This document shows positions 760 through 58,020 of a DNA stretch of 61,980 nucleotides, one piece after another; within the stretch, counting starts at the first letter, position 1; each line of letters opens with the position of its first letter. The DNA is from a virus: positions 1 to 61,980 of IMG/VR virus record IMGVR_UViG_3300026290_000012; one strand, written 5' to 3'. A program made the position numbers and the translations under genes. The notes under the pieces were generated by a model, which worked only from the letters and a program-made list of their open reading frames with translations, searched no databases and was not told the DNA's origin.

Positions 760-953
760 CCATAGTCTGTAAGATTAATACATTCACCACAGTGTTCACA
801 TTCTGCCATTTTAACAGTACCAATACCCGTTCCAGTAAAAGTAATGTGAATAGTGGATTGATACTTGTTATCATCAAAGCATCGCTCATGATGCTGGATG
901 AATTGATTAAATTGTGCAAGTTCATTTTCATTGAGTTCTAACATTATCCACAC
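750..953 (-). CDS. small hypothetical protein with C-terminal CxxC knuckle
   Basis: Overlaps the RNR stop; CEHCG motif. Confidence 0.6.
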   Translation of the reverse strand: MWIMLELNENELAQFNQFIQHHERCFDDNKYQSTIHITFTGTGIGTVKMAECEHCGECINLTDYGCW

Positions 954-4786: not shown

Positions 4787-5659
4787 TTACACCAATAACT
4801 GTTTCAAGAGAAAGTCAATCTCATCCTGCAAATAATCAAGCGATAAATTATTGTTTATTCTACACGTAAACAATTCACTATCTTTATGTATTGTAAACAT
4901 ACCTTCATCTCTCTCTACACGTTCCTTGCCTACACGTTTGATTCTGGTAGACAAATCAGCATAAACACGAATGCACTTGATGTCATACACTTCACTGAAA
5001 TTTTGCATGAGGTAAATCAATCCACGCTCATCAATAACATACGTGTTAAAATCCAGCACATCCTTCTTCAGACAACAGTAGCGATGCCCACCAAATTCAG
5101 TGTAGGCAATCATATCATCATGCGAGAAAGTATCAAACTCTTCTTTGGTTACAAATGTATGACCTGTCTCACCTGGATAACGCATAGGACGATCAGTGTA
5201 GGACTCCATCATCTTGATACCATGTTCACGTTCTATGTATTCTGCAATGGTTGTCTTACCGCTACCCGATTCACCTACAATGCAGATAATGAGAGGTTTA
5301 CGATTTGCCTTACGTGTAATAAAACGATAAATCTCATTCCAGTTCATGATATTACACGGATACGCTTTATCATCAATGTAGACATCTGCACCAATCTTTC
5401 TACAATCGTTACCATACTCTTCAATACGGTAACAAAGGTTCTCATTAACAGCAGAATACTTGATTCCCATTTGTTTAAGGAAATCAATCATATCCTGTTC
5501 TTCCTTGCCCTGTCGGCAAGAATTGATGATAATCTCATGCCCTGCATCAAACAGTTCATTGATCACCTTCTTTGCATTGCGCTTCAGATAACCAATGCCA
5601 GGATACTTGTTTGTTACAATAGTTCCATCGAAGTCTACTGCAATGACTAATTTCTTCAT
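4787..5659 (-). CDS. HAD-family phosphatase fused to guanylate-kinase-like P-loop kinase
   Basis: N-terminal IAVDFDGT and YIDDK; C-terminal GESGSGKTT, SYTDRPMR, YTEFGGHRY. Start moved to ATG 5659 because of an upstream GGTGA RBS. Confidence 0.8.
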   Translation of the reverse strand: MKKLVIAVDFDGTIVTNKYPGIGYLKRNAKKVINELFDAGHEIIINSCRQGKEEQDMIDFLKQMGIKYSAVNENLCYRIEEYGNDCRKIGADVYIDDKAYPCNIMNWNEIYRFITRKANRKPLIICIVGESGSGKTTIAEYIEREHGIKMMESYTDRPMRYPGETGHTFVTKEEFDTFSHDDMIAYTEFGGHRYCCLKKDVLDFNTYVIDERGLIYLMQNFSEVYDIKCIRVYADLSTRIKRVGKERVERDEGMFTIHKDSELFTCRINNNLSLDYLQDEIDFLLKQLLV

Positions 5660-6063
5660 AAAATCACCATTGATGTTATAAATCCTAACCAAAATGTAAG
5701 AAACGCTACAGTGAGTAAATCATACCTATTATGTTGTTCTTCAGTTATTTCTTCAGTAAACAAAACCTCATCATCCTCTTCCATTTCCTCCAATTCATCA
5801 ATGATCATATCTACATCAATGAATCGTACTTCGGATTGAGGATTGATTTCTGCTATCGCTTTCAGTGTAATGAGAAAACGTGTAACAGCAACAGCAAACT
5901 CCTCATCGTCAAACGATGTAATAAAAAGCGTAGATGACGCTAATCCATTTACATCATATCTTTCAGTTAATTCATTGTAGCGACACTCGAAACCACAAAA
6001 GTCAAGGAAATTGTGAGGGGTGTAACATTTACTCTCCTCATCATACATATCTAGGTAGAACAA
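5656..6063 (-). CDS. acidic hypothetical protein with C-terminal transmembrane helix
   Basis: Asp/Glu-rich; hydrophobic LLTVAFLTFWLGFITSMVIL tail. Confidence 0.6.
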   Translation of the reverse strand: MFYLDMYDEESKCYTPHNFLDFCGFECRYNELTERYDVNGLASSTLFITSFDDEEFAVAVTRFLITLKAIAEINPQSEVRFIDVDMIIDELEEMEEDDEVLFTEEITEEQHNRYDLLTVAFLTFWLGFITSMVIL

Positions 6064-6954
6064 TTAATCAACTCCAGTTTGAATGTCTCTGATTCTCTGC
6101 TGATAATACTGGAAGATGTTTCGTGGTGCTTTACAGTTATGTTTCCTACACTCTTCATTGATGTATTTTGCAACCAATGGCATTGCAACTTTAATATCAG
6201 TAAAGTCACTACCAATATCTGTTCTTACCTTTTCTATTGCACCGTAGATTTCAGAATCAGGTAAAATAGGCAATTGAATTTTATCTTTTTCTTCCATTCT
6301 AGGTATCTTTTCCAGAGAAGGAAGATCTTGCTTCTCTTTGAAGTAAACAATACCTCTCTTAGTTCCTGCACCTTCACCACAATTCCAGGGTAGTTCAGCC
6401 CAAACCTTTCCTACAACACCTTCCATACTGTTATCTTTCGCCTTCTCAATCATCTCATCCTTGAACTTGTAAAGGGATTCAATGGTTGAAACATTGCACG
6501 TTCCATATAAATCCACTACAGGAATATCAAAGTGGTAACAAGTCTGATACACTTTATTGTAATGTAGGAATCTATTTTGTTTCGTGCTCCAAATATCAAA
6601 CACTACAAAGTCAAAATCCTCATGCATTTCAATGCGCGTAGGTGAACGTCCTTTCATCAACATCTCACCAAACACTACAAGTTCATCACCATAATCACGT
6701 TCATTGAGAATCATTTCTCGAATTGAATCAACATGAGGCGTTTGATTGAATCCACTGTAAAACATATCAGAGGCATTTGCTAGATTCCTACTGCGTAAAT
6801 GAATGTTATTTTCATCATTTAAACAGATTCCAAGGCAGGAACCATCTCTTTTTACTTGAAAAAAGATTTCCTGACCCAAAAGAATCTCAGGGTTAGGTTT
6901 CAGATTTGCAATCCTTTCAAGTTCTGGATACCTGATCTTATCAATCTCAATCAT
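6064..6954 (-). CDS. ATP-dependent RNA ligase-like nucleotidyltransferase
   Basis: Motif I KRDGS, III VFGEM, IIIa FVVFDI, IV EGVVGK, V FKEK; no OB domain recognisable. Confidence 0.75.
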   Translation of the reverse strand: MIEIDKIRYPELERIANLKPNPEILLGQEIFFQVKRDGSCLGICLNDENNIHLRSRNLANASDMFYSGFNQTPHVDSIREMILNERDYGDELVVFGEMLMKGRSPTRIEMHEDFDFVVFDIWSTKQNRFLHYNKVYQTCYHFDIPVVDLYGTCNVSTIESLYKFKDEMIEKAKDNSMEGVVGKVWAELPWNCGEGAGTKRGIVYFKEKQDLPSLEKIPRMEEKDKIQLPILPDSEIYGAIEKVRTDIGSDFTDIKVAMPLVAKYINEECRKHNCKAPRNIFQYYQQRIRDIQTGVD

Positions 6955-7050
6955 CCTTTCACCTGCATAATTAGTTTTCAGTCTGATTATATATATCTTA
7001 TGTTTTTGACGGAGAGTGTATCAATTACAATACACGTTATGAAACACCCA

Positions 7051-7188
7051 CCACAATCAAAAAATCATACCAAAGTCATAGCATTTTCGCATGGTTTAGC
7101 ACCCTATCTCTTGTGGGATGAACATTTATATCACCCTGAAAAAACATATCGAAAAAACGTGCATTTTACTCAAAGAATTGAAGAGATT
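7051..7188. repeat. dispersed ~125-bp non-coding repeat, copy 1
   Basis: CCACAATCAAAAAATCATA identical to 28764-28782; TTTTACTCAAAG lies 125 nt from the start, versus 124 nt in copy 3. Confidence 0.75.
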
Positions 7189-14999: not shown

Positions 15000-15218
15000 T
15001 TACCTTTTGTTATAATGACCAATAGACATAGGAAGCGATGCAACAAACAGACCAAGCACAATACCACAAATGGTTTGCCAAAGTCCCGTAATACCAATCA
15101 TACCTAGCAACACATACGCAACGTAGCAAAATGCAGCATACCAAATGAAAAGAAATGCAATGCACACTACAATAATTACAATCCAACCAATTATCTTTAA
15201 TCCTTCAATATAATTCAT
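15000..15218 (-). CDS. small two-helix membrane protein
   Basis: Almost entirely hydrophobic. Confidence 0.6.
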   Translation of the reverse strand: MNYIEGLKIIGWIVIIVVCIAFLFIWYAAFCYVAYVLLGMIGITGLWQTICGIVLGLFVASLPMSIGHYNKR

Positions 15219-15237
15219 GTAGGTTCACCTAAAAAGA

Positions 15238-16377
15238 TTAGAGGAAATCATCATCCTCAACAAATGCATCAGTAGTCTCTACATCCTCTGCAATCTCATA
15301 CAAATCTTCAGGACGCGAGAACTTGGGATCAGTGACGAAACCAAGCAGATTACCACTTGCTTCACCCCTCTTATTGAAGTAGGGTTTGAAACATACAATG
15401 CCTACTGCCTGCTCACAGAGTCCCGTAACAACACCAGGAGAACATGATAATGAAACATTACCCTCGAAATCCTCATCGAGTGGTGTAACCTCTACAAAGG
15501 CATACTCATCAAACAGACTAATCTTAGAGATAATGGCTTCAGCAAGCAGGAACTTCTTATCCGAATACTCACCATTGATTACTTTTGCCTCAATGTCATA
15601 CACATCTTCAAAGGCAGCACAGTTATCTCCAAACGAGTCCTCTACGAGTGTAACAAATTCATCGTAATCAAAGTCATCGTCAAGATCTACAAGTTTAGAT
15701 GTGTTAATTCCAGTAGAAATGTTTACAACATCTTTGTTCTCATCCTTACACGTTCCCCTAAACATGTAGATCTTGCCAAATTCAGGAACAAAATTTGCAG
15801 GATCTTTCACATAGACAACACCGGGTTTTACCTCACCGGAATTAGGCATTTCAAAGAATCCATATGCCCTGTTCTCCATCTGAACCTTCGGAATCTTCTT
15901 TCCAATAAGGAACGCCTGGAATGTCGTGGTATTCTTCTTAGTGTAGAGTAGATTACCGTCTACATCAATCAGACCGTCAGCGATAGCATTTTCCTTCCAC
16001 TCATCGCCAAACATCTTCTTGTAGATTGCAATCTCATTATTTGCATCAGCGTTTGCCTTCTTTACCGAATCATACGGCTTGGTGTAACCAAAGAAGAAAC
16101 CTTTGAACGGTAACATGTTAGAACGCAATGCAGCGTTGTAAGAACCAACAATCGATTTGATGGTAACAATACTTGCCTTAGACTCCGTGATACCGTCCCG
16201 CTTCATATATTCAGCAAAACGCTTCTTATACTCAGCCATGATAACATCAGGACGCTCACCGACCTTTTCTGCAATCTCATTGATTCTTGCTACAATGCTC
16301 TCGTCCACATCAGTAGACTTATCTTTCTTACTTTTCAATGCCAATCTAAGCACCAATATGTTATTGGTAAGTTCCAC
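15238..16377 (-). CDS. putative single-stranded DNA-binding protein (RPA/OB-fold)
   Basis: Beta-rich, OB-like segments (GKIYMFRG), acidic tail ending VEDDDFL; replication context. Confidence 0.55.
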   Translation of the reverse strand: MELTNNILVLRLALKSKKDKSTDVDESIVARINEIAEKVGERPDVIMAEYKKRFAEYMKRDGITESKASIVTIKSIVGSYNAALRSNMLPFKGFFFGYTKPYDSVKKANADANNEIAIYKKMFGDEWKENAIADGLIDVDGNLLYTKKNTTTFQAFLIGKKIPKVQMENRAYGFFEMPNSGEVKPGVVYVKDPANFVPEFGKIYMFRGTCKDENKDVVNISTGINTSKLVDLDDDFDYDEFVTLVEDSFGDNCAAFEDVYDIEAKVINGEYSDKKFLLAEAIISKISLFDEYAFVEVTPLDEDFEGNVSLSCSPGVVTGLCEQAVGIVCFKPYFNKRGEASGNLLGFVTDPKFSRPEDLYEIAEDVETTDAFVEDDDFL

Positions 16378-20963: not shown

Positions 20964-23486
20964 TTATCTCCTATTTATACCAATCATGAATTTACGTTTA
21001 CCGCGCTTTCCTTTCTCCTTAAACACCGCACTCTTGTTAATCGTCATTCTTACAAGTCCTTCGAGTGCATCAGGAGCATCATCGTGTTTGTGAACCGGGT
21101 ATCGCACTAATTGATTAATCAGTTCAGGATACGCTTCAGTCCAATCATCACGAAACAGGACTTTGCCTGATGTAACAAACGGTTCAACAGATTCAATACG
21201 AATCCGTTTCTTCTTCTGATTCTTAATTTCTTTAATTTTCATGCGCTTACGCATGTCTTTGATTTTATCATTGCGTTCTTTAAGGAATTGAGAAATAAGA
21301 CTCTGGAAACCGTTTGTTTCGATTCCAAGTTCTTCACAATTATAAAAGTTGTAATAATACACCATCTTCTCAATAGAAACATTTGGCGGTGATGTATTAC
21401 TTAACCAACAATCACGCACGTAAAGAACATGGTCTTTGATTGCACCTACTATAATAACGCAAAAATCATTTTCGTTACCAAGTGCCGGATCAACATAGAT
21501 AACATGCCTACAATCCTTGAAGTAAGGATTCTGTGCACGTTCTTGAGGCATTTTCTTTTCAGTGTAATATTGCAAGTTCTCCAGTTTGAATAACTGTGTC
21601 TCAGAGGGTAGCGGTTGGTTTAAATACTGACTTGAAAACTCTACTGCACCTTTCTCAATGCGTAGTGCCTGAATCTTTTGCTCGTTATAAATTGAAGGAT
21701 ACTTTGGATTACCATCTTTATCTACAATGGAATCAATTTCAATATCATAACGCATAAAATCAGGCAATTTTGGATTCTGCTCAATGATTTCGCCGTATAA
21801 TTCTGCGTCGGACCATCTGGTACCTATTACCATTAAAAGACCATCAGGCTCCAAAATGGAGATTAAATCTTTATACCAACGCTTCTTCTGCTCACGAATA
21901 GCAGCAGACTCACGATCTGCGTTATTACAATTTCCTAAAAATACAGTTTTATTATTTCTCCTTACAAATAAAATATGATTAGGAACTTCAACACAATATA
22001 CTTTACCATCGTAATCTGTTTTATACCAATGACATTTTCTTACTTCAGTTTCATTTGTCCCTGGTGATAATTCATGAACCAAATAACATCTATGTCTAAA
22101 TTTTTTACTTTTTGAAAAAGGATTTAAACGCATTCTACTACTAAGTGATGCACATCTTCCTATTTTCAAAACTAACTCTTGTAAGTCATTTGCTAAATAA
22201 GGTGAAGATGTATAATATTCACGATACCCATATTTCAAATATCCATCACCAAGAAAATAACCATTTAAAAAAATATCTATTTGTCTTGGTGATAGGTCTT
22301 TAATAAATTGTGGAACTTTTTTATTAAAGGATTTTGTTCCAAATTGAGCAAGGTATGTTGCTAATTGCGTTGAATGAATTGTGTAATAATTTCTATTACC
22401 ATCCTGATGTGTATAAACTTTATACTCAAAGGGTAATCTTTTAAATAAATCTTCTATAATTTTACATTGTTCTTGATTGACTGTAGGTGATTGACAAATG
22501 CTTACACTATTATAATTTTTTCCACCTCTTGAACTTATATGGCCTTCTGAAATATACCAACCAAGAAATGCAAGAAAATCATCCATCTTAATTTTTACTT
22601 CATCTCTTTTAGCACCATTACCTAAAACCATTTTTGGTAATACAAATGTATCTATTTCTTTACCTTTCCAAACACCACTTTTTTGAAAATAGCCATTTAA
22701 TCCATAAATTTCTTCTGCTGATTCTAACTTATAATCATGTATTGGTGCTGCTCTTCTAAACCAATAATTATGATCAGGTGTTGTAAGAATATCAAGAAAC
22801 TTTTGTTTAACCCCAATCATTTCACCTTTGTAATCTTTCTCAATGTAACGTATTGGTTTTTGATATTCAATTTCATTAGTTTTAGGATTTAATGTAGCGA
22901 CAAGATCAATACCCTTCTCTAAATCCTTAAACAACTTCCAGCCGTTATCTGTAAGAATCTCCGTTTTATCATCATAACATACATCATCACATATGATAAT
23001 ATCATAATGTTCTGACGTTAAAGCAGCAAGAGCACCACGCGCCTTAAGGTTTGGTTCTTTCTTTATAATACGTGGATTTAAAATAATTTCTTGCTGATTC
23101 TCTCTTGTAATGGGATTATCATTTCCAAAGTCAGCAAAGAACTGTTTAATATTTTCATTCTTTGTTAACTGTTCCTTGATTTCAGAAAGAATCTGCTCTG
23201 CTAAGTCATTGGTAGCAGATGTAATGAGAATACGTAAGGTGAACTTTCCATCGTGTTTTACGTAATCATCAAGTAATCTATCAATTACAAAAGAAACATC
23301 ATAGATAGTAGTCTTATAAGTTCCACGCGGTTTCAAGCGCATGATACGTTTGTGAGTCTTGATTGCTTCTTCAAGGTTATCGCACCACTCTTTATGAACA
23401 TCCTCAGTTATTTTCTCGTAACCAAGCATGTATTTTGCAATATTGAAAAGAGTGAGGCGTTTACCATGATAAACAATATTCGACAT
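20964..23486 (-). CDS. terL: terminase large subunit, intein-containing
   Basis: PRGTYKTT Walker A, IIICDD Walker B, VIGTRW, YVDPA, HDDAPDALE nuclease motif. Confidence 0.93.
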   Translation of the reverse strand: MSNIVYHGKRLTLFNIAKYMLGYEKITEDVHKEWCDNLEEAIKTHKRIMRLKPRGTYKTTIYDVSFVIDRLLDDYVKHDGKFTLRILITSATNDLAEQILSEIKEQLTKNENIKQFFADFGNDNPITRENQQEIILNPRIIKKEPNLKARGALAALTSEHYDIIICDDVCYDDKTEILTDNGWKLFKDLEKGIDLVATLNPKTNEIEYQKPIRYIEKDYKGEMIGVKQKFLDILTTPDHNYWFRRAAPIHDYKLESAEEIYGLNGYFQKSGVWKGKEIDTFVLPKMVLGNGAKRDEVKIKMDDFLAFLGWYISEGHISSRGGKNYNSVSICQSPTVNQEQCKIIEDLFKRLPFEYKVYTHQDGNRNYYTIHSTQLATYLAQFGTKSFNKKVPQFIKDLSPRQIDIFLNGYFLGDGYLKYGYREYYTSSPYLANDLQELVLKIGRCASLSSRMRLNPFSKSKKFRHRCYLVHELSPGTNETEVRKCHWYKTDYDGKVYCVEVPNHILFVRRNNKTVFLGNCNNADRESAAIREQKKRWYKDLISILEPDGLLMVIGTRWSDAELYGEIIEQNPKLPDFMRYDIEIDSIVDKDGNPKYPSIYNEQKIQALRIEKGAVEFSSQYLNQPLPSETQLFKLENLQYYTEKKMPQERAQNPYFKDCRHVIYVDPALGNENDFCVIIVGAIKDHVLYVRDCWLSNTSPPNVSIEKMVYYYNFYNCEELGIETNGFQSLISQFLKERNDKIKDMRKRMKIKEIKNQKKKRIRIESVEPFVTSGKVLFRDDWTEAYPELINQLVRYPVHKHDDAPDALEGLVRMTINKSAVFKEKGKRGKRKFMIGINRR
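21930..22979 (-). mobile_element. intein (350 aa) with LAGLIDADG homing endonuclease in TerL
   Basis: Starts CYDDKTEILTDNGW directly after Walker B; LGWYISEG and FLNGYFLGDG motifs; ends VYCVEVPNHILFVRRNNKTVFLGN before Cys+1. Confidence 0.93.
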
Positions 23487-29018: not shown

Positions 29019-29591
29019 CTATTGTATATCTTTGTTCATCGATGCACTTTTTTCGACATTAATGTATACATTTGAACATTGATATCCAGGGACGAACATT
29101 GATGATAGTTTGTGGTATTTTCGCTCATATGAGTAATAAATCGGAAAGTGCTTTTCCATCTCAATAATGGGATGGGTGCTCATGACCATTACGGCACAAT
29201 TATCATGATTATACATTTTTGAAAAATGGGTATCCACTTGGAGAATATAGGTAAGTGTATGGCTATGCTGATCTACTATGTCGTCCGATGTGGCATTGTA
29301 GTATCCCGGCATCCCGGTATCCCTACTAGATACCTGATAGAGCACTGACATATCAGTATAGGATAATGCGAGTATCGCGCGATCAGAAACAGAGAGCGTT
29401 CTAACCGTTTTTGGTGTATCAATCTCTTTGATTTGTGCTTCTTTTTCTAATCTCCTCAAATTGAGCATATTTGGATAGTGAATATACCTCCGTATCGTGC
29501 GTATAATCAACGATCTTGTATCGGTTAAGGGTAAAGTATCACCTGTAAAATTGATGCGCTTAAATCGCTTACAAAACGGTGATACTTTCAT
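29019..29591 (-). CDS. possible hypothetical protein (190 aa)
   Basis: ORF length only; atypical composition and no clear RBS. Confidence 0.3.
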   Translation of the reverse strand: MKVSPFCKRFKRINFTGDTLPLTDTRSLIIRTIRRYIHYPNMLNLRRLEKEAQIKEIDTPKTVRTLSVSDRAILALSYTDMSVLYQVSSRDTGMPGYYNATSDDIVDQHSHTLTYILQVDTHFSKMYNHDNCAVMVMSTHPIIEMEKHFPIYYSYERKYHKLSSMFVPGYQCSNVYINVEKSASMNKDIQ

Positions 29592-29789
29592 TACATACTA
29601 TATTGGTTCTGTGCGTATATATAGATAGTAGAGTATCTATATGAGGAAAGGAAAGGTATTAAATAGTTGGATAGTTATATGAGATTGAAACGTCTAATTT
29701 GGGTTTCGTTTGATGATTTGGCGTTATGTGTGTCGTTTTTCCGTTTTGCTTATGACATTTCGATAGGTATTTATACTCTTGAGATAATC

Positions 29790-29985
29790 TCTTAGTATCC
29801 CGTGGATACCCTAGTATGTGGATAGGGTACGACGTAGGCAAAACCGGAGCGAAAAGCATTCCAGTCTTTTACCTGTAACCGACATGTCATTACATGGGTC
29901 GCACAAGGTTTCAAACAAGAGGAAATGCTGAGTAGTGCATGTAATACTCTAATGCATATGCAAGCGGTATTGCCGGTATACAAAT
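29790..29985 (+). ncRNA. putative structured leader/ncRNA upstream of the early cluster
   Basis: TATTTATA at about 29769, followed by several nested hairpins. Confidence 0.35.
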
Positions 29986-29988
29986 AGT

Positions 29989-30031
29989 GTGCTCCACCGT
30001 TTTAGACGTCGGATCAAATCCAGTGGAGCAT
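29989..30031 (+). ncRNA. tRNA-like element 1 (weakest T-arm)
   Basis: GTGCTCCAC/GTGGAGCAT stem, CGT-TTTAG-ACG, GG-ATCAAAT-CC. Confidence 0.55.
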
Positions 30032-30062
30032 ATGCCCCAAATGGGGTAAAGGAAGTGATTTT

Positions 30063-30260
30063 ATGGGTGATTTAGGTTATTGTGCGGTATGCTATGACTG
30101 TGGAAAAGAATTTTTGTGTGGTGAACATATTCTTTCGTATCCTCCAAAAGAGAGAGTATGTTTTGAATGTGCTCATAAGAGACTAAAATACACCATAGAT
30201 GAATCAGAACCATACAATGATGATTTAGAGCCTTGTTTACCCTACTATGATTCTTTCTAA
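30063..30260 (+). CDS. small Zn-finger early protein
   Basis: CxxCxxC and CxxC; AGGAAGTGA RBS. Confidence 0.7.
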   Translation: MGDLGYCAVCYDCGKEFLCGEHILSYPPKERVCFECAHKRLKYTIDESEPYNDDLEPCLPYYDSF

Positions 30261-30300
30261 TCCCTCCATTTTAGATGTAGTGTTCAATCACAGTGGGATT
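30259..30300 (+). ncRNA. tRNA-like element 2
   Basis: AATCCCTC/GTGGGATT, CAT-TTTAG-ATG, GTG-TTCAAT-CAC. Confidence 0.65.
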
Positions 30301-30339
30301 TTTACCTATCAGGTAAAACTGATAGGAGGAAGTGAAAAA

Positions 30340-30768
30340 ATGGAGATATACGAAAGGAAAAAAACAACTCGTTTTGCGGTCGAACAACTGGAAAAACTCT
30401 TTGTATCGCTCAATGAGCGATTAGAGGAGGATATAGCCAATTTTGACGGTGAGAAGGAATTTTTTGCCATAGTGGAACATGATAATGGGTATATGCCTGG
30501 TGATTATAACAGAAATGTCTGGAAAACAGATAGAACGAAAATTGGATACCGAAATGGTGAGTTATGTTTGATTTGCCACAATTCTAGTTTTGACGAGGAA
30601 TACCGAGATTACTTTAAAGTTAGTGCTGATGAGTTTTGGAGAATTAAGAAAATTAACTTCAGCGAAATGTTTAACGCTCTCAAAGAGGTAGTTGAAGCAT
30701 ATAATGAGAAGTCGAAAGAGAAAGATAAGCAGATAGAACATTTTTTGGAAATTGCAAAACAATTTTAA
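30340..30768 (+). CDS. hypothetical early protein
   Basis: Start moved to ATG 30340 (AGGAGGAAGTGA RBS); in frame with track ORF 30247. Confidence 0.7.
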   Translation: MEIYERKKTTRFAVEQLEKLFVSLNERLEEDIANFDGEKEFFAIVEHDNGYMPGDYNRNVWKTDRTKIGYRNGELCLICHNSSFDEEYRDYFKVSADEFWRIKKINFSEMFNALKEVVEAYNEKSKEKDKQIEHFLEIAKQF

Positions 30769-30810
30769 CCCTTTTTCGCATTTTGGCGTTTGGTTCAATC
30801 CAGAAAAGGG
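30769..30810 (+). ncRNA. tRNA-like element 3
   Basis: CCCTTT/AAAGGG, CGC-ATTTTG-GCG, TTTGG-TTCAAT-CCAGA. Confidence 0.7.
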
Positions 30811-30846
30811 AATGCCTAGCAAAATGCTAGGTTATGAGGTAAAAGT

Positions 30847-30990
30847 ATGCAAGTATTTATTGAAGGGTGCAAAACCGCTAAAGAAGCGAGAGAAAAAGCA
30901 TCATGGGCTTCAAAAGTTGTAAAGGTTGAAGGTGGATATATTGCGTTTGAGTTTATGACTGATTACACCACATGGAAAAATCAAAAATAA
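30847..30990 (+). CDS. small protein MQVFIEGCKTAKEAREKASWASKVVKVEGGY (47 aa; not in ORF track)
   Basis: Manual translation; GAGGT RBS; bounded by elements 3 and 4. Confidence 0.75.
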   Translation: MQVFIEGCKTAKEAREKASWASKVVKVEGGYIAFEFMTDYTTWKNQK

Positions 30991-31036
30991 ACCCTTTTTA
31001 CTCGCAGGTAATGAGATTCGATTCTCAAAAGGGTTT
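30989..31036 (+). ncRNA. tRNA-like element 4 (best copy)
   Basis: AAACCCTTT/AAAGGGTTT, TTAC-TCGCAG-GTAA, TGAGA-TTCGAT-TCTCA, no unpaired linkers. Confidence 0.75.
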
Positions 31037-31062
31037 CCCGAAAGGGAAAGGAAAGTGAGAGA

Positions 31063-31635
31063 ATGATCATTGAAAGTGACGCAAAACATTTTTCGACACG
31101 TTATGTTGTTGGAAAGTATCGCATTTCGAGCATTCATTTTTTCGATACAAACGGTATTGTATGTGAGACTGATTGGGGATATCTTGAGAACAATGAAAAT
31201 TATATTCATCAGAGAATACCCAGTTTTGAGATTAAGAATCAAGACACTATTAAACTGAAGAGAAAACTTGATTTTAACACAAAAGAGGCATTTCTTTTTG
31301 AATCAAAAAGGGATTGGGATAATGCACTTACAACAAAACTGTATATCCCGTTTATCAAAGAGGATTGGGACATTGAAGAAGTATGGGAAATTGATATTGG
31401 TAATCCATCATTTGAAAATCTATGGAGAAAATTTCACCATAAAGAAAGTAATGCACTCATTAAGGTTAAAATTTCACAGAGAGATACAAAAGAAAAATCA
31501 TATATTGATAATCTCACTGAAATAATGAGATTAACTCATTATGACAAAGAAAATATGAGATTATCACAAAATGATATGGTAAACAACAAAGAACAGATTT
31601 TAGAACTAATGAAAGAGATTCTTAAATCCTCTTAA
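31063..31635 (+). CDS. hypothetical early protein (190 aa)
   Basis: RBS and cluster context. Confidence 0.7.
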   Translation: MIIESDAKHFSTRYVVGKYRISSIHFFDTNGIVCETDWGYLENNENYIHQRIPSFEIKNQDTIKLKRKLDFNTKEAFLFESKRDWDNALTTKLYIPFIKEDWDIEEVWEIDIGNPSFENLWRKFHHKESNALIKVKISQRDTKEKSYIDNLTEIMRLTHYDKENMRLSQNDMVNNKEQILELMKEILKSS

Positions 31636-31678
31636 CTTTTTCAGAAGTTAATCAAGGTTCATTACCTTAAGAGGATTT
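31624..31678 (+). ncRNA. tRNA-like element 5
   Basis: AAATCCTCTT/AAGAGGATTT, AACTT-TTTCAG-AAGTT, AAGG-TTCATTA-CCTT. Confidence 0.65.
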
Positions 31679-31705
31679 CCCGAAAGGGAGTGAGGAAGTG
31701 ATAAA

Positions 31706-31870
31706 ATGCTTCACGTATTGAAAAACGGCACAAAAAACATTGAACGGTTTTTAGAGAAATGTACTGTGAGAATACTCTGTAATCAATGTCATGGTGCTGG
31801 CTGTGCTCAGTGCTCAGGATATGGGTATACTAGAGAGATTATAGATCGGAAAAGAGTTTATGAGGTATAA
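31706..31870 (+). CDS. small DnaJ-type Zn-finger protein (54 aa; not in ORF track)
   Basis: Manual translation containing CNQCHGAG-CAQCSGYG; AGGAAGTGA RBS. Confidence 0.7.
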   Translation: MLHVLKNGTKNIERFLEKCTVRILCNQCHGAGCAQCSGYGYTREIIDRKRVYEV

Positions 31871-31873
31871 AGT

Positions 31874-32197
31874 ATGCAAAAATCAACCTTTAAGGTAGGA
31901 AGTATCATTAATGGTGCTTTAGGTATTTACATTCCTTATAATGTAGTCAATTTTGCTATACAAATGGGTTTTAATCCCTCTATTGAATGGAAACAATGTG
32001 TAAAAGAAGCAAAAGAAAAGGGAGAAGATGAAGAGGATTATTTGACACATAATTATGAATGGATTTATGAAGAGATGGAAAACGCCGAAAATTGGTTAAA
32101 CGCTGAAATAGCAGACAATGAACATTATTTTGGAACTGTGCTTGATGGAACAGATTGGGGCTATTGGAAAGTTGAAGAAGATTGGTTATCTATTTGA
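31874..32197 (+). CDS. acidic hypothetical early protein
   Basis: RBS, packing; Glu/Asp/Trp-rich. Confidence 0.7.
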   Translation: MQKSTFKVGSIINGALGIYIPYNVVNFAIQMGFNPSIEWKQCVKEAKEKGEDEEDYLTHNYEWIYEEMENAENWLNAEIADNEHYFGTVLDGTDWGYWKVEEDWLSI

Positions 32198-32209
32198 GGA
32201 GATGGAAGA

Positions 32210-32470
32210 ATGAAAGAGTATCTAAAAGAAATGAAAGAAAAAGGAAAGTATGATTATTATGCATGGCCTGGAGGATACCCATTATTTTATATTACAAAAG
32301 ATTATGGTATTTTGTGTCCAAAATGTTGTAATGAAAATAAAGAATTGTTAAATGATGAATATGATCCGCAATGGTTTGTTATCGATTATGAAGTTAACTG
32401 GGAAGATGATAAAATGTATTGTGATCATTGTAATGAAAAAATAGAAAGTGCATATAGTGAGGATGAATAA
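32210..32470 (+). CDS. acidic Zn-finger early protein
   Basis: AWPGGYP, CPKC, CDHC. Confidence 0.72.
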   Translation: MKEYLKEMKEKGKYDYYAWPGGYPLFYITKDYGILCPKCCNENKELLNDEYDPQWFVIDYEVNWEDDKMYCDHCNEKIESAYSEDE

Positions 32471-32512
32471 ACCCTTTTTACTTTAGGTAATGTGGTTCAA
32501 TCCAGAAAGGGG
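32471..32512 (+). ncRNA. tRNA-like element 6
   Basis: CCCTTT/AAGGGG, TTAC-TTTAG-GTAA, TGTGG-TTCAAT-CCAGA. Confidence 0.7.
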
Positions 32513-32544
32513 AATGTCCCATTAAGGGATTAGGAAGTGATTTT

Positions 32545-32988
32545 ATGCAAAAATGGAGCAGATCAGAGAATTATATAGGAGAAACGTATTATGACTACTA
32601 TGTTTTGCTCTCTCGTAATAGGGATAGTGGATTAGTAGAAGAATCAAATTTTTGGAGTGCTTTAAAGGCATTAAATGGAGAGAGTAAAACCGTTAAAGTT
32701 ATTCGTTCATCTCACTGGTTATGCGGATGGGTTGAATTTATTATAATCCATGAATCAGACATTAAAAGCGTTAATAAGGGTAATGAGATAGAAAAAGCAC
32801 TAGAAAATTATCCTATCCTAGATGAAGATGCGTTTGGTGAAATGGTATTAGAAAAAGAAACAGAAATGTTTGATCAAATAAAATATGATGCAGATCACGG
32901 TTTATATGCCTATTGGGATTTGCCGAAAGATTATACTGATGAGGATATATGGGAAAGAGTAAAAAGATATGTTTCTGATGAATGGTGA
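32545..32988 (+). CDS. acidic hypothetical early protein (147 aa)
   Basis: AGGAAGTGA RBS. Confidence 0.72.
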   Translation: MQKWSRSENYIGETYYDYYVLLSRNRDSGLVEESNFWSALKALNGESKTVKVIRSSHWLCGWVEFIIIHESDIKSVNKGNEIEKALENYPILDEDAFGEMVLEKETEMFDQIKYDADHGLYAYWDLPKDYTDEDIWERVKRYVSDEW

Positions 32989-32992
32989 TTAA

Positions 32993-33412
32993 ATGGAGTT
33001 TTCAGACATTTTAAAGCAGTTATGGCACAGTTCTTACTCTGATGCACTAACAGATCCAAAGGTGCATGTATTTGTAGGAAATAGCAGACACATTAGCGTT
33101 TCGCCGTTCTACAATTCAAATTGTGATATGGGTTTTGAAGATGAGAAGAAGTTACTACAAGGTAAGTTAAGGAAGATTAACGAAAATTTGTTTAAGAACT
33201 TTCATTTGCTTTGCTTTACGGAATTGAAAATTGTTCCGAAATTTAAACCTGGTAAAATCATCATATTCAATGAATATGGTGATTTTGTAAACGAACAGCA
33301 TATAAGGAATATACAAAAAATCATTAATGCTAATCCTCTTACAGTATTTAAGGTTAAAACAAAGCAGAATGTTGAATTGAAAGGTAATAATGTAAGAATG
33401 ATAAAGAAATAA
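32993..33412 (+). CDS. hypothetical early protein (139 aa)
   Basis: Operon packing. Confidence 0.65.
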   Translation: MEFSDILKQLWHSSYSDALTDPKVHVFVGNSRHISVSPFYNSNCDMGFEDEKKLLQGKLRKINENLFKNFHLLCFTELKIVPKFKPGKIIIFNEYGDFVNEQHIRNIQKIINANPLTVFKVKTKQNVELKGNNVRMIKK

Positions 33413-33541
33413 ATTCTCTTTTACTTTTCATAAAGGTTAATGGGTTTCCATTAACCGTGAAGAAGTGATAGGAGAAGAAAAAATGACTTATGAATTGACG
33501 AATGAAGGATTTAGAGCCAAGGTAGGAAGTGAGTTGAGATT

Positions 33542-41710: not shown

Positions 41711-41852
41711 GTTTGATTACCATAAGTTCCAGGGTTGCTTTGATCTCACGTAACTGTTCATCAGTAGCATCAATGATGAGAATTTTATGTGTTGTATGAC
41801 CTTTACCATTACTATCAGTAATATGGGTGGGTTTGGATATATGGAATAACAT
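41685..41852 (-). CDS. small protein (55 aa; not in ORF track) starting just after tRNA-Gln
   Basis: Manual translation MLFHISKPTHITDSNGKG...; ATG is 2 nt downstream of the tRNA discriminator. Confidence 0.45.
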   Translation of the reverse strand: MLFHISKPTHITDSNGKGHTTHKILIIDATDEQLREIKATLELMVIKHEMARRDY

Positions 41853-41854
41853 AA

Positions 41855-41992
41855 TTCTCCCGGCAGGATTTGAACCTGCGTCACTGGATTTCTTCAGAGT
41901 GTGACAGGAGTTACCGCCCGTTCAGACCAAATTGTGAGTTTTGCCCACACTCTACCAAAGTCCAGTAGGCTTACCGATTACCCTACGGGAGT
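41855..41992 (-). tRNA. tRNA-Gln(UUG) with 65-nt BHB intron (41890-41954) at position 37/38
   Basis: Cloverleaf; T-arm GCAGG-TTCAAAT-CCTGC; BHB central helix CTTT/GAAG, 3-nt bulges GG|T and AA|A, outer helix AGAGTGTG/CACACTCT; no encoded CCA. Confidence 0.92.
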
Positions 41993-41994
41993 GA

Positions 41995-42077
41995 TGCGTC
42001 AAGCAGGACTCGAACCTGCGATCCCCTACGGGAAGAGATTTTAAGTCTCTCGTCGTTTCCATCTTGACTATTGACGC
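41995..42077 (-). tRNA. tRNA-Leu(UAA)
   Basis: GCGTCAA/TTGACGC acceptor stem, AGAGA-CTTAAAA-TCTCT anticodon arm, long variable arm, GCAGG-TTCGAGT-CCTGC. Confidence 0.95.
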
Positions 42078-42178: not shown

Positions 42179-42580
42179 ATGATGAGTAATAGTTTATCTG
42201 ACCTTGCATATTGTGCCGGTCTTATGGATGGAGAGGGTTGTATTACACTTATCAGGGATAGTGAATCAAATTATAGATTACGCGTTAAAATAACATCTAC
42301 TGATTATTCTGTTCTCGAATGGTTACAGGAACACTTTGATGGGTATATTCATCTCTCGCGTAAGGAAAGTAAATATAATAAAGAAGCGTGGGATTGGGTA
42401 TGCAAGGTTGAAGATCAGGTTGTGTTTTTATTCGGGATTCTTCCTTACACTATTATCAAGCGCGCACAGATCATTGAGGCGTTGAATTATCATTTTGAGA
42501 AACAGAATGGTGGTAAGTTAACTGAAGATGAATATAAGTTACGTAGTGCATATTACGAAAGATTAAAAACATTGAAATAA
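42179..42580 (+). CDS. free-standing LAGLIDADG homing endonuclease
   Basis: LAYCAGLMDGEGCI motif, single-motif size, PYTIIKRAQ. Confidence 0.88.
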   Translation: MMSNSLSDLAYCAGLMDGEGCITLIRDSESNYRLRVKITSTDYSVLEWLQEHFDGYIHLSRKESKYNKEAWDWVCKVEDQVVFLFGILPYTIIKRAQIIEALNYHFEKQNGGKLTEDEYKLRSAYYERLKTLK

Positions 42581-43895: not shown

Positions 43896-44840
43896 ATGGG
43901 ATATTATGGTTTTGTTGAGCCGGATAATAAGGTTATTGCTTACGCTCCTAATACTATTCTGATTCAGGAAGAGAAGGCAGAAGAAGCAACCATTAAGCCG
44001 GGCATGGTTGTAATGAAAGGCACGAATGACGATGATGTTGTTGCGTGTGATGGTGTTACGAAGGCACCGTTTGGTGTTGCAGGTTACGAGCAGTCTTTCT
44101 TAGGTGCTGCATCGTCTACGTCTAATCGTCCTGCCAATGTTGATACCGCTTACGCTAAGGACGCGCGTGTTCCTGTTCTTGGTGGTGGTGGTTTCGTTGC
44201 TATGTTACATCTCGCTCCTGGTGTTGGCACTGTGAAGGGCGATCTGCTCGCATCGTGGGGTGGTGGCACTGTTGTACCTGTTGTGCCTATGCCCGGAGGG
44301 TATGGTGTCAGGATTCCGTTTACTAAGAATGCTTCTGAGACTGATACTGGTGTTGATCTCCCGGAAGGAATTATTGTTTCTGATGTCATTGTTGAGGTGA
44401 CTAAGGAAGTTGCCCTTGCTACTATTGACGTTGGGATCCTGTCTACTGAAGATTCATCCGGCCCCGGCACTGATGGATTCCTTGATGGTGAATCGTGTGC
44501 TGATCTTGGATTCGTGAAGCATAATACTGTTGCTACCGCTGCCGGCGCTTCTCTTACGCTTGGTGACTATTTCAAGGAAGCAGATATTATCGACGCTACC
44601 TCTGCCGCTGCTCAGACTTATAGAGTTCCTAATTATCATGTTGTTGGTAGTGGTCAGGTTTCGGTTTCGTATAAAACTTCTGATAGTACCGATCTTGCAG
44701 GTAACTTCTACATGGTGTGTTCTGCTCCTGGCTTCCAGATTGTAGGACGTGCAGAAGAGACTCTTGCACCTGTTACTGAAAAAGTTGATAATGCTGATGT
44801 GTTTGTCAGTCAGGACGTTATGGCTAGGGTGTATATTTAA
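43896..44840 (+). CDS. putative capsid decoration/cement protein
   Basis: IKPGMVVMKG..GVAGY beta-tulip-like N-terminus; lies between scaffold and MCP. Confidence 0.55.
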   Translation: MGYYGFVEPDNKVIAYAPNTILIQEEKAEEATIKPGMVVMKGTNDDDVVACDGVTKAPFGVAGYEQSFLGAASSTSNRPANVDTAYAKDARVPVLGGGGFVAMLHLAPGVGTVKGDLLASWGGGTVVPVVPMPGGYGVRIPFTKNASETDTGVDLPEGIIVSDVIVEVTKEVALATIDVGILSTEDSSGPGTDGFLDGESCADLGFVKHNTVATAAGASLTLGDYFKEADIIDATSAAAQTYRVPNYHVVGSGQVSVSYKTSDSTDLAGNFYMVCSAPGFQIVGRAEETLAPVTEKVDNADVFVSQDVMARVYI

Positions 44841-48519: not shown

Positions 48520-48942
48520 ATGGTTAATGTTATTATTAACAATGAAACTTATGAACTGACTGATGAACCTTACCACGGCATTGTGCGTAAGGTTCGGAAG
48601 ATGCAGAAAGCAATGCTTATTGATTTTCTATCCAGGTTCAAGGATGAACTTGACGATAGTATGAAAATTGAAGATGCTCTTGCCATGATTGCAAATAAGC
48701 ATCCCGATGAAATTATTGAATATTCAGAGCGTGAGGAAGATTTCATCATTGTTACTACGATTTCTCTCGCTACAAATAAGATGTGGAATATAGAGGATTT
48801 TGACACTGTTCCTATTGGGGAAATGGATAAGATTTTCCAACAGTGTAAGGATGTTCTTGGTGGCGATGTGAACCGTTTTTTCAGAGGTTACGCGACGAAT
48901 ACACAGGAAGCACCGAAGGAACTCAAGTTGAAGAAGAAGTAG
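48520..48942 (+). CDS. tail assembly chaperone (G-like)
   Basis: Lies between tube and TMP; T-TTT-TTC slippery heptamer at 48876-48882. Confidence 0.72.
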   Translation: MVNVIINNETYELTDEPYHGIVRKVRKMQKAMLIDFLSRFKDELDDSMKIEDALAMIANKHPDEIIEYSEREEDFIIVTTISLATNKMWNIEDFDTVPIGEMDKIFQQCKDVLGGDVNRFFRGYATNTQEAPKELKLKKK

Positions 48943-57946: not shown

Positions 57947-58020
57947 GTCCTAGAGGCTGATCCAGAACAACAAGGATTGAAACTCCTGGCTGGCGCGTGG
58001 TAATTTCTCTCACACGACTG
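57947..58020 (+). CRISPR. solitary 37-nt CRISPR-like repeat plus 37-nt putative spacer
   Basis: GTCCTAGAGGCTGATCCAGAACAACAAGGATTGAAAC (57947-57983) has a GATCC/GGATT hairpin and a 3' ATTGAAAC handle; no second full repeat and no cas genes. Confidence 0.7.

Follow-up and report, generated by a model that had tools for sequence, protein, structure and literature searches.

The expression and processing of early transcripts in archaeal viruses are little understood, and a locus in the IMG/VR virus record IMGVR_UViG_3300026290_000012 raises the question of how a run of small genes behind one promoter might yield separate messages. The window analyzed here is that whole record, 61,980 bp in length, with an estimated completeness of ~90%. 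Between 29.99 and 32.51 kb, where a plus-strand run of small genes without assigned function begins, and nowhere else in the genome, it carries six elements (c1 to c6) that we call Y elements. These constitute a family of ~45-nt sense-strand three-way-junction RNAs closing the small gene cassettes of a presumed early operon, the full unit being a TAA stop codon, a Y element, 0-4 nt, a stable hairpin, a Shine-Dalgarno (SD) sequence and an ATG. They represent a new structured RNA family, closest in kind to the t-elements of plant mitochondria and haloarchaea, and we propose, from sequence, that they are probably the sites at which the long early message is cut or insulated.

Structure, conservation and modularity of the Y elements

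Folding with ViennaRNA revealed an arrangement common to all six elements, in which an outer stem encloses two small hairpins. This Y fold is both the minimum free energy (MFE) and the centroid structure for c1, c3, c4 and c5 and the MFE structure only for c6, and it appears for c2 when the 47-nt element is folded alone. The c1 element has an MFE of -27.8 kcal/mol (z = -4.1); the c6 fold is thermodynamically weak alone (z = +0.3). A preliminary description of this DNA, made from its letters only, had placed six elements with one common fold at these positions, and both the ViennaRNA folds and the covariance models presented below confirm it. The loops that it quoted are likewise correct, with TTTAG in three copies, TCGCAG, TTTCAG and ATTTTG in hairpin 1, and TTCAAT in three copies, TTCGAT, ATCAAAT and TTCATTA in hairpin 2. 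The elements and the cassettes that follow them are:

29987..30033, + strand: c1 Y element, in the leader; outer stem GTGTGCTCCAC/GTGGAGCATAT, hairpins CGT-TTTAG-ACG and GGA-TCAAA-TCC
30034..30062, + strand: c1 cassette; hairpin GCCCC-AAAT-GGGGT (30034-30047), SD AGGAAGTGAT (30050-30059), ATG at 30063
30259..30300, + strand: c2 Y element; outer stem AATCCC/GGGATT, hairpins CAT-TTTAG-ATG and GTG-TTCAAT-CAC
30305..30339, + strand: c2 cassette; hairpin CCTATCAG-GTAAAA-CTGATAGG, SD GGAGGAAGTGA, ATG at 30340
30769..30810, + strand: c3 Y element; outer stem CCCTTTTT/GAAAAGGG, hairpins CGC-ATTTTG-GCG and TGG-TTCAAT-CCA
30814..30846, + strand: c3 cassette; hairpin at 30814-30832, SD GAGGT at 30836-30840, ATG at 30847
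30990..31035, + strand: c4 Y element, at TAA 30988-30990; outer stem ACCCTTT/AAAGGGT, hairpins TAC-TCGCAG-GTA and TGAGA-TTCGAT-TCTCA
31036..31062, + strand: c4 cassette; hairpin TCCC-GAAA-GGGA, SD GGAAAGTGA, ATG at 31063
31624..31678, + strand: c5 Y element; outer stem AAATCCTCTT/AAGAGGATTT, hairpin 2 AAGG-TTCATTA-CCTT
31678..31705, + strand: c5 cassette; hairpin TCCC-GAAA-GGGA, SD GAGGAAGTGA, ATG at 31706
32472..32512, + strand: c6 Y element; outer stem CCCTTTT/GAAAGGG, hairpins TAC-TTTAG-GTA and TGG-TTCAAT-CCA
32516..32544, + strand: c6 cassette; hairpin GTCCC-ATTAA-GGGAT, SD AGGAAGTGA, ATG at 32545

In all six cases, as had been described, a separate hairpin, an SD and the ATG follow; the hairpin stands 0-4 nt downstream, and the SD is of the GGAAGTGA type. 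Five of the elements had also been said to begin at an upstream stop codon. This holds for four of them, with c2 starting in the AA of its stop (TAA 30258-30260), c3 directly 3' of TAA 30766-30768, c4 at its stop as given above and c6 1 nt past TAA 32468-32470. The outer stem of c5 instead overlaps the last three codons and the stop (31633-31635) of the open reading frame (ORF) at 31063-31635, an overlap that the preliminary description had itself recorded, and c1 has no upstream ORF.

Most copies contain a run of four to five T within 12 nt of the stop, and archaeal polymerases terminate at oligo-T without the need of a hairpin. Leaky terminators or attenuators of the archaeal RNA polymerase, using the run in the 5' half of the element (CCCTTTTT, CTTTTTC) as their signal and grading expression along the operon, would exploit such a run. 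The run may equally be one strand of an A-U-rich stem, however, and termination leaves the conserved complementary A-run, the two hairpins and the covariation of the elements unexplained, whereas a stop at c1, in the leader, would silence the whole operon; we regard such a terminator function as very unlikely. The hairpins that follow the Y elements differ from bacterial-type intrinsic terminators in preceding an SD and not a T-run.

Covariance models allowed us to define the family beyond the folds of individual copies. A first model (R1), built from c3, c4 and c6, scored these three elements with E values of 7e-14, 8e-14 and 1e-14, respectively, c5 with 0.0095 and c2 with 0.13, and a second model (R2), rebuilt from relatives, scored c3 with 1e-11, c5 with 4.5e-4 and c2 with 0.022; c1 was caught by neither. 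No further convincing copy was found with either model elsewhere in the window. An R2 match at 15199-15239 (E 0.011), the only other one listed, was not accepted as a copy, and R1 also lists a candidate match at 48801-48848.

Outside the window, three related viral contigs share the operon, with protein identities of 75-82%, and carry orthologous elements. The protein encoded between c2 and c3 has ~60 metagenomic homologues, and in the contigs fetched for seven of these the elements flank the gene on both sides. A metagenome scan with exact 18-mers provided ~30 more contigs, and the removal of duplicates and of spacers from clustered regularly interspaced short palindromic repeat (CRISPR) arrays left 69 distinct cassettes, in which a covariance model finds the same element. 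For the 66 cassettes with full context, the element starts at or 1 nt past a TAA in 61, the hairpin begins at most 3 nt downstream in 63, and SD and ATG are present in 60, at a median distance of 30 nt. Every accepted model match is in the sense orientation relative to its flanking genes. One complete cassette, with TAA, Y element, hairpin, SD and ATG, lies in a 58-kb virus (L056, 7941-8025, Y element at 7943) in which the neighboring sequence looks unrelated and is more GC-rich. An exact 16-mer scan of viral contigs returned 43 loci, about the number expected by chance, of which two were real; the 190-aa protein yielded no viral relatives when used as an anchor; the 147-aa protein yielded only distant viruses without the element; and an alignment of the 139-aa protein yielded nothing beyond two relatives already found.

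The fold is under selection. In an alignment of 32 distinct sequences, fitted to the model and hence favoring structure, standard pairs occupy 92.4% of cells as compared to 79.0% after shuffling, a level that none of 500 shuffles reached. Changes on both sides were observed at 11 of the 13 pairs, which substantiates the earlier remark that stems differ between copies yet keep their pairing, and sliding the 3' partners by 1-3 columns as a control lowered pairing to 40-66%. Copies of the c1 type provide independent support for the fold, because the model does not detect them. The c1 orthologues in three related loci (L055, L057 and L083) display compensatory changes in all three helices. Among the c1-type copies, c1 included, the 5' strand of the outer stem is GTGTGCTCCAC, GTGTGCTCCAT, GTTCACTCCAT or TAATCACTCCAC, and the 3' strand matches it in every case; CGT/ACG in hairpin 1 gives way to CGC/GCG, and GGAT/ATCC in hairpin 2 to AGAT/ATCT. 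In the c2 orthologue at L055 4055 the outer stem forms 8 bp without a mismatch (AACCCTAT/ATAGGGTT), and the c5 orthologue at L055 5273 combines compensatory changes in hairpin 2 with a different outer stem. Wobble pairs are distributed asymmetrically between strands (G-U in 20 cells versus A-C in 11), favoring the sense strand only mildly.

The cassettes are also modular. The same downstream hairpin, SD and gene stand behind a c2-type Y element in the window, a c1-type element in L057 and a c3-type element in L086; L057 combines a c1-type Y element with a c2-type hairpin; and gene content between cassettes varies among relatives, with L084 lacking the 47-aa gene. Recombined Y and hairpin types (L057, L084, L086) and a changing gene content are what one would expect of DNA-level shuffling sites, at which repeated borders would let small genes swap by recombination, in the manner of integron attC sites or the PeSL (promoter/stem-loop) cassettes of T4-type phages, and the RNA would have no role. 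The compensatory changes in three helices nonetheless point to selection on the fold, and not only on sequence identity. Inspection of the cassettes found no promoter-like motif, and the attC cores R'' (RYYYAAC) and R' (GTTRRRY) were likewise absent by inspection from the flanks of c3, c4 and their relatives, no integrase search having been made. We consider it highly improbable that shuffling is what the elements are for, and it is better viewed as a by-product of repeated functional cassettes.

Amid the varying stems some loop bases are fixed: the TC of loop 2 is invariant, and loop 1 ends in G in nearly all copies. Watson-Crick kissing between the two loops was considered and rejected, since their variants do not co-vary (e.g. 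ATCAG occurs with both TTCAAT and TTCGAT). Conserved loop bases on co-varying stems, limited to one operon of the genome, are consistent with operator sites for an RNA-binding protein, encoded by the virus or by the host, that would control all early cistrons together at the level of translation, decay or anti-termination, and several of the operon products are small, zinc-ribbon-like proteins outside known families. Yet no RNA-binding domain was found among the ten operon proteins, and the presence of the element in the unrelated-looking neighborhood of L056 makes a host factor the more likely partner. A position after stop codons, rather than over the SD, would moreover be unusual for a translational operator, and we deem this explanation improbable.

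Likeness to tRNA and predicted processing of the early transcript

The order of helices in the Y elements is that of a tRNA minus its anticodon arm, with an outer stem and two hairpins spanning ~42-55 nt in total and no four-arm cloverleaf. Hairpin 2 reads GGTTCAATCC or GAGATTCGATTCTC in most copies, the loops UUCAAU and UUCGAU correspond to the T-loop consensus minus one base, and a single copy, in a relative (L084:1167), carries the exact canonical T-loop motif GGTTCAAATCC. Among 40 parsed elements, loop 2 is TTCAAT in 16 and TTCGAT in two, the others belonging to the (A)TCAA(AT) or TTCATTA types. In most copies hairpin 2 is separated from the 3' strand of the outer stem by 0-1 nt, as a T-arm would be, and the G of loop 1 and the C of loop 2 could form an elbow pair. 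A tRNA mimic that RNase P and tRNase Z would address is a plausible reading of the sequence, and the T-loop-like loop, the G of loop 1 and the TC of loop 2 are consistent with the mimicry put forward in the preliminary description.

A number of observations weigh against this reading, and on these the proposed mimicry falls short. At a threshold of E<=10 the Rfam tRNA model (RF00005) does not pick up any of the elements, whether over the full record or in 29500-33500, ARAGORN detects none, and none matches any other Rfam family, including tmRNA (transfer-messenger RNA) and Y RNA. Self-cleaving ribozymes (hammerhead, twister, HDV-like and others) have no Rfam match in the window or in 16 related loci; the scans of the operon region and of these loci returned only chance-level matches to CRISPR-DR17 and small nucleolar RNAs (E 0.12-3), and the junction strands (0-5 nt) are too short for a CUGAUGA/GAAA core. 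The 12-bp acceptor/T-arm geometry that had been claimed seems not to hold across the family: in a greedy parse, whose helix ends are ambiguous because of optional A-T pairs at both ends, the outer stem takes up 5-12 bp and hairpin 2 takes up 3-7 bp, for a sum of 9-16 bp (mostly 11-14), so that the 7+5 bp of c4 would not be a family rule. Hairpin-2 loops are mostly 6 nt and not 7 nt long, and the ATCAAAT and TTCATTA subtypes, which lie off the consensus, depart from the U54/A58 pattern and are able to fold as tri- or pentaloops. With its 3-bp stem and 5-6-nt loop, hairpin 1 is not D-arm-like, and neither a discriminator nor a CCA signature is present. The AA of the TAA stop is usually part of the outer stem, which in c5 runs into the last codons, and an mRNA cut at the 5' base of the stem would be left without its stop codon. 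Finally, a true tRNA gene does not replace the Y element in any of 40 related loci. With regard to helix lengths, natural tRNAs with 8/4 and 9/3 splits between acceptor and T stem do exist (PMC5389517).

Several of these observations would be expected of generic stability or insulation modules not recognized by tRNA enzymes. The Y element would then act as a structure of the 3' untranslated region (UTR) that blocks 3'-to-5' decay and keeps a ribosome terminating upstream apart from the next cistron. The hairpin behind it would be a 5'-UTR structure keeping the SD open, and any cleavage would be carried out by a different endonuclease, such as one of the aCPSF1 or RNase J family. The fixed order of stop, Y element, hairpin and SD fits such modules equally well; they accommodate variable helix lengths, loops that are not T-loop-like and a silent tRNA model, and other gaps of the operon do hold conserved structures without a T-loop-like motif (e.g. 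33413-33483, with orthologues in L055, L057 and L083). What they leave unexplained is why the TC of loop 2 and the G of loop 1 persist amid changing stems and why a three-way junction should be kept where a simple hairpin would do, and in the leader c1 has no upstream gene to protect. We judge this explanation somewhat unlikely.

The explanation that we favor, and hold tentatively as one that may be right but that we would not yet call likely, is that the Y elements are tRNA-like processing signals, or t-elements, read by the tRNA end-processing enzymes of the host. The alternatives explain conserved loop bases on a three-way junction less simply. The outer stem would stack on hairpin 2, with its T-loop-like UUCAAU, and form a corner with the G of loop 1 that presents the element to these enzymes. 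The main cut, of the tRNase Z type, would fall just 3' of the outer stem, and the downstream cistron would then begin with a 5' hairpin that shields the message and leaves its SD free. A cut of this type would generate a 5'-monophosphate RNA starting 0-3 nt before the stable hairpin, which might plausibly guard it against 5'-to-3' decay. A cut just 3' of the Y element fits the modular pattern, in which the Y element stays with the stop before it and the hairpin and SD go with the gene behind them. The 5' cut by RNase P is less certain, and at c1 processing would trim the ~190-nt conserved leader off the first cistron. To our knowledge, most archaea lack RNase III, and tRNA enzymes would therefore be the obvious structure-specific cutter for the virus to borrow. 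Both the cleavage and the choice of enzymes are what we infer. There is precedent: the t-element of Haloferax is cut in vivo by tRNase Z and RNase P and functions as a portable processing part (PMC4326828), and the t-elements of plant mitochondria define mRNA ends (PMC1920247).

The virus, its archaeal host and the early promoter

The available evidence supports an archaeal host, more precisely a Methanomicrobia methanogen, because spacer-matching CRISPR arrays, an intron-bearing tRNA and the sources of the viral relatives agree. Two metagenomic CRISPR arrays (L150 and L116) with the common repeat GTTTGAATTGGACTAAGATAGGATTGAAAC hold spacers against this virus group. The first of them comprises 193 repeats, with at least 13 spacers identical to the window and a further one (spacer 115) matching element c1 with one mismatch; spacer 15 of the second corresponds exactly to the Y element of three relatives. 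With up to two mismatches, the repeat occurs in three of 401 genomes of the GTDB class containing a Methanofollis metagenome-assembled genome (MAG), one of which holds 173 copies. The relatives come from biogas and fermentation metagenomes. In addition to a tRNA-Leu (41995-42077), the only tRNA called by ARAGORN, the virus encodes a second tRNA with an insertion of ~65 nt at the anticodon loop, below the size of a group I intron. The exact spacer matches, in an array with a repeat also present in Methanomicrobia genomes, and the tRNA insertion uphold the archaeal nature of the virus that the preliminary description had presumed.

Four further loci (L117, L093, L107 and L125) carry host arrays of the repeat GTTTGAATTGGACTAAGATAGGATTGAAAC. 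A search of 151 Methanomicrobia genomes with model R2 found no element, under filters so strict that the result shows little. A 565-kb record (L082, NCBI FZPS01000056.1) that contains a relative of the operon was left out of the host call; its GC content is mosaic, ranging from 0.30 to 0.61 over 12 kb, and its record name recurs among separate metagenome pieces, giving it the look of a concatenated metagenome assembly and not of a host chromosome.

Upstream of the operon, a TATA-like box at a conserved place precedes a conserved leader:

29768..29775, + strand: TATA-box-like motif TATTTATA upstream of the early operon, conserved in relatives
29800..29986, + strand: structured 5' leader preceding c1, with long invariant blocks in an alignment with four relatives (A9)

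The motif, which four relatives have as TATAAATA or TATATATA in the same position, lies ~25 nt before the start of the conserved leader and is the probable archaeal promoter of the operon, judging by its sequence and location. It is the only such motif seen, and inspection found none between stop and ATG within the cassettes. The leader (~190 nt) is highly conserved in the four relatives and contains two hairpins that keep pairing through changes on both sides. RNAalifold proposes that leader segments GTGGAT, CGACGT and GGAGCG pair with parts of c1, which could represent an alternative conformation. We set this long-range pairing aside, since the leader does not track the compensatory changes of c1, and prefer the local Y fold.

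Farther downstream, some gaps of the operon hold other conserved structures (33413-33483 in the window; 7027-7103 and 7410-7486 in L055; 7118-7212 in L057; 5054-5200 in L083). They consist of a CTTT/AAAG hairpin and a GGTTAATGG..CCATTAACC hairpin, with a compensatory change from C-G to T-A between relatives; their 3' part overlaps an SD-like GAAGTGA, and they lack the TTCAAT loop. The element-bearing run adjoins a 1.8-kb region without convincing genes, where both the coding strand and the GC skew flip.

The virus is tailed. Among its products are an Mtd-type tropism determinant, a Mu-F-like head protein and a DNA polymerase of family B. Its GC content is ~36%, and ribosome-binding sites throughout the genome are centered on GGTGA. 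Further genes encode a clamp-loader-like ATPase, a thymidylate synthase, a dCTP deaminase and two DNA methylases. Both the ribonucleotide reductase (944-3532, - strand) and the large terminase (20964-23486, - strand) bear inteins, of the Intein_splicing/HINT and LAGLIDADG kinds, respectively, and a stand-alone ORF with a LAGLIDADG-like sequence motif (42179-42580) adjoins the tRNAs. The polymerase is only 27% identical to T4-like polymerases. In isolated phages we found neither a DNA match to any cassette nor a match to the 314-aa protein encoded at 43896-44840 of the window, which has no Pfam family. The intron-containing tRNA (41850-41995, - strand) stops 2 nt short of the ATG (41852) of the next minus-strand ORF, and processing of its 3' end could yield an almost leaderless mRNA.

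The virus also carries genes for an RNA ligase (PF09414) and, nearby, for a protein that combines a HAD-type phosphatase signal at its N terminus with a P-loop kinase at its C terminus (4787-5692 and 6064-6954, both - strand). These look like a polynucleotide kinase/ligase pair for RNA repair, as in phage T4 against tRNA-cleaving defenses. A lone 37-nt CRISPR repeat is present at 57947-57983 (Rfam CRISPR-DR7, 37.9 bits). Its best full-length match, identical at 35 of 37 positions, is to the repeat of a Methanofollis MAG, and its family differs from that of the repeat in the arrays that target the virus. A host call from this solitary repeat was rejected, as its 20-nt end recurs in numerous arrays, bacterial as well as archaeal, and is not diagnostic. 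The end of the repeat, GGATTGAAAC (57974-57983), is the source of the 5' tag of the CRISPR RNA (crRNA), and the hairpin-2 core GGTTCAATCC (30792-30801 and 32494-32503) is identical at nine of ten positions to its reverse complement, so that a sequence resembling an anti-tag stands in every early intergenic gap. This likeness is probably coincidental.

The repair pair, the solitary repeat and the anti-tag likeness could all be enlisted for a role in trans, whereby excised ~45-nt RNAs would serve as tRNA-elbow decoys against tRNA-directed defenses or as an anti-tag-like crRNA sponge. The existence of free RNA is unsupported, however, the element, lacking an anticodon arm, offers no bait to anticodon nucleases, complementarity over 8-10 nt is weak and the motif common, and strict placement in cis argues for a role in cis; we find such decoys or sponges scarcely credible. 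The fuller scenario, in which anticodon-less elbow mimics are excised by host RNase P and tRNase Z to leave hairpin-capped monocistronic mRNAs, while the ~45-nt RNAs accumulate and act in trans in step with the viral RNA-repair enzymes, for instance by titrating tRNA-binding defense or processing factors, is one to which we give little credence. Were it true, an archaeal virus would have its own counterpart of mitochondrial tRNA punctuation, made of portable gene cassettes.

Comparison with known systems and significance

The t-elements of plant mitochondria (Forner et al. 2007, PMC1920247) share with the Y elements a short, non-cloverleaf structure with an acceptor-like stem and a T-arm-like hairpin inside longer transcripts, beside the ends of mRNAs or rRNAs. 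A t-element of the same shape lies upstream of the 5S rRNA of Haloferax volcanii and is cut by archaeal tRNase Z and RNase P (Holzle et al. 2008, as cited in PMC4326828). Plant t-elements were found through the full GGTTCRANYCC motif, from which most copies here are one base short (GGTTCAATCC) and which one relative matches exactly. Unlike t-elements, the viral element occurs after each gene of the operon, is fused to the stop codon and is always followed by a hairpin-SD module, and its cleavage is a prediction only.

In mitochondrial tRNA punctuation and in the formation of the 3' end of MALAT1 by mascRNA, tRNA shapes recruit RNase P and RNase Z to set RNA ends. Mitochondrial tRNAs and mascRNA are full or near-full cloverleaves seen by tRNA models, however, whereas Y elements have no anticodon arm and obtain no score from such models. 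The TMER units of murine gammaherpesvirus 68 consist of a viral tRNA-like RNA followed by hairpins, which tRNase Z releases. They resemble the cassettes described here in placing a tRNA-like structure directly before a stable hairpin, with a cut expected between the two, but they are RNA polymerase III transcripts of a eukaryotic virus with precursor-microRNA hairpins, whereas the viral hairpin here heads an SD-bearing mRNA. Structured repeats also stand between small early genes of phages, as the early RNase III sites of T7 and the promoter/stem-loop (PeSL) cassettes of T4-type phages. These split or insulate cistrons and offer recombination points for gene shuffling, as the Y cassettes may; the Y element differs in being a three-way junction and not a long duplex, in gaps that lack a promoter motif and in an archaeal host. 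The tRNA-like domains of tmRNA and of the bacterial Y RNA YrlA, finally, lack an anticodon arm while retaining acceptor, D-like and T-like arms (PMC4201824). Those domains are parts of stand-alone non-coding RNAs with Rfam models, none of which the Y elements match. In the literature we found no description of such elements in phages or archaeal viruses.

If the t-element reading is correct, a portable cassette that recruits tRNA-processing enzymes would explain how separate, stable messages arise from one promoter, adding a viral case to the few known t-elements. It would also offer methanogen genetics a compact and sequence-flexible processing part, comparable to the use made of the Haloferax t-element (PMC4326828). 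Even if other enzymes are involved, the Y elements constitute a well-supported new structured RNA family, with ~70 distinct members, a biogas-reactor setting and a host link established through CRISPR.

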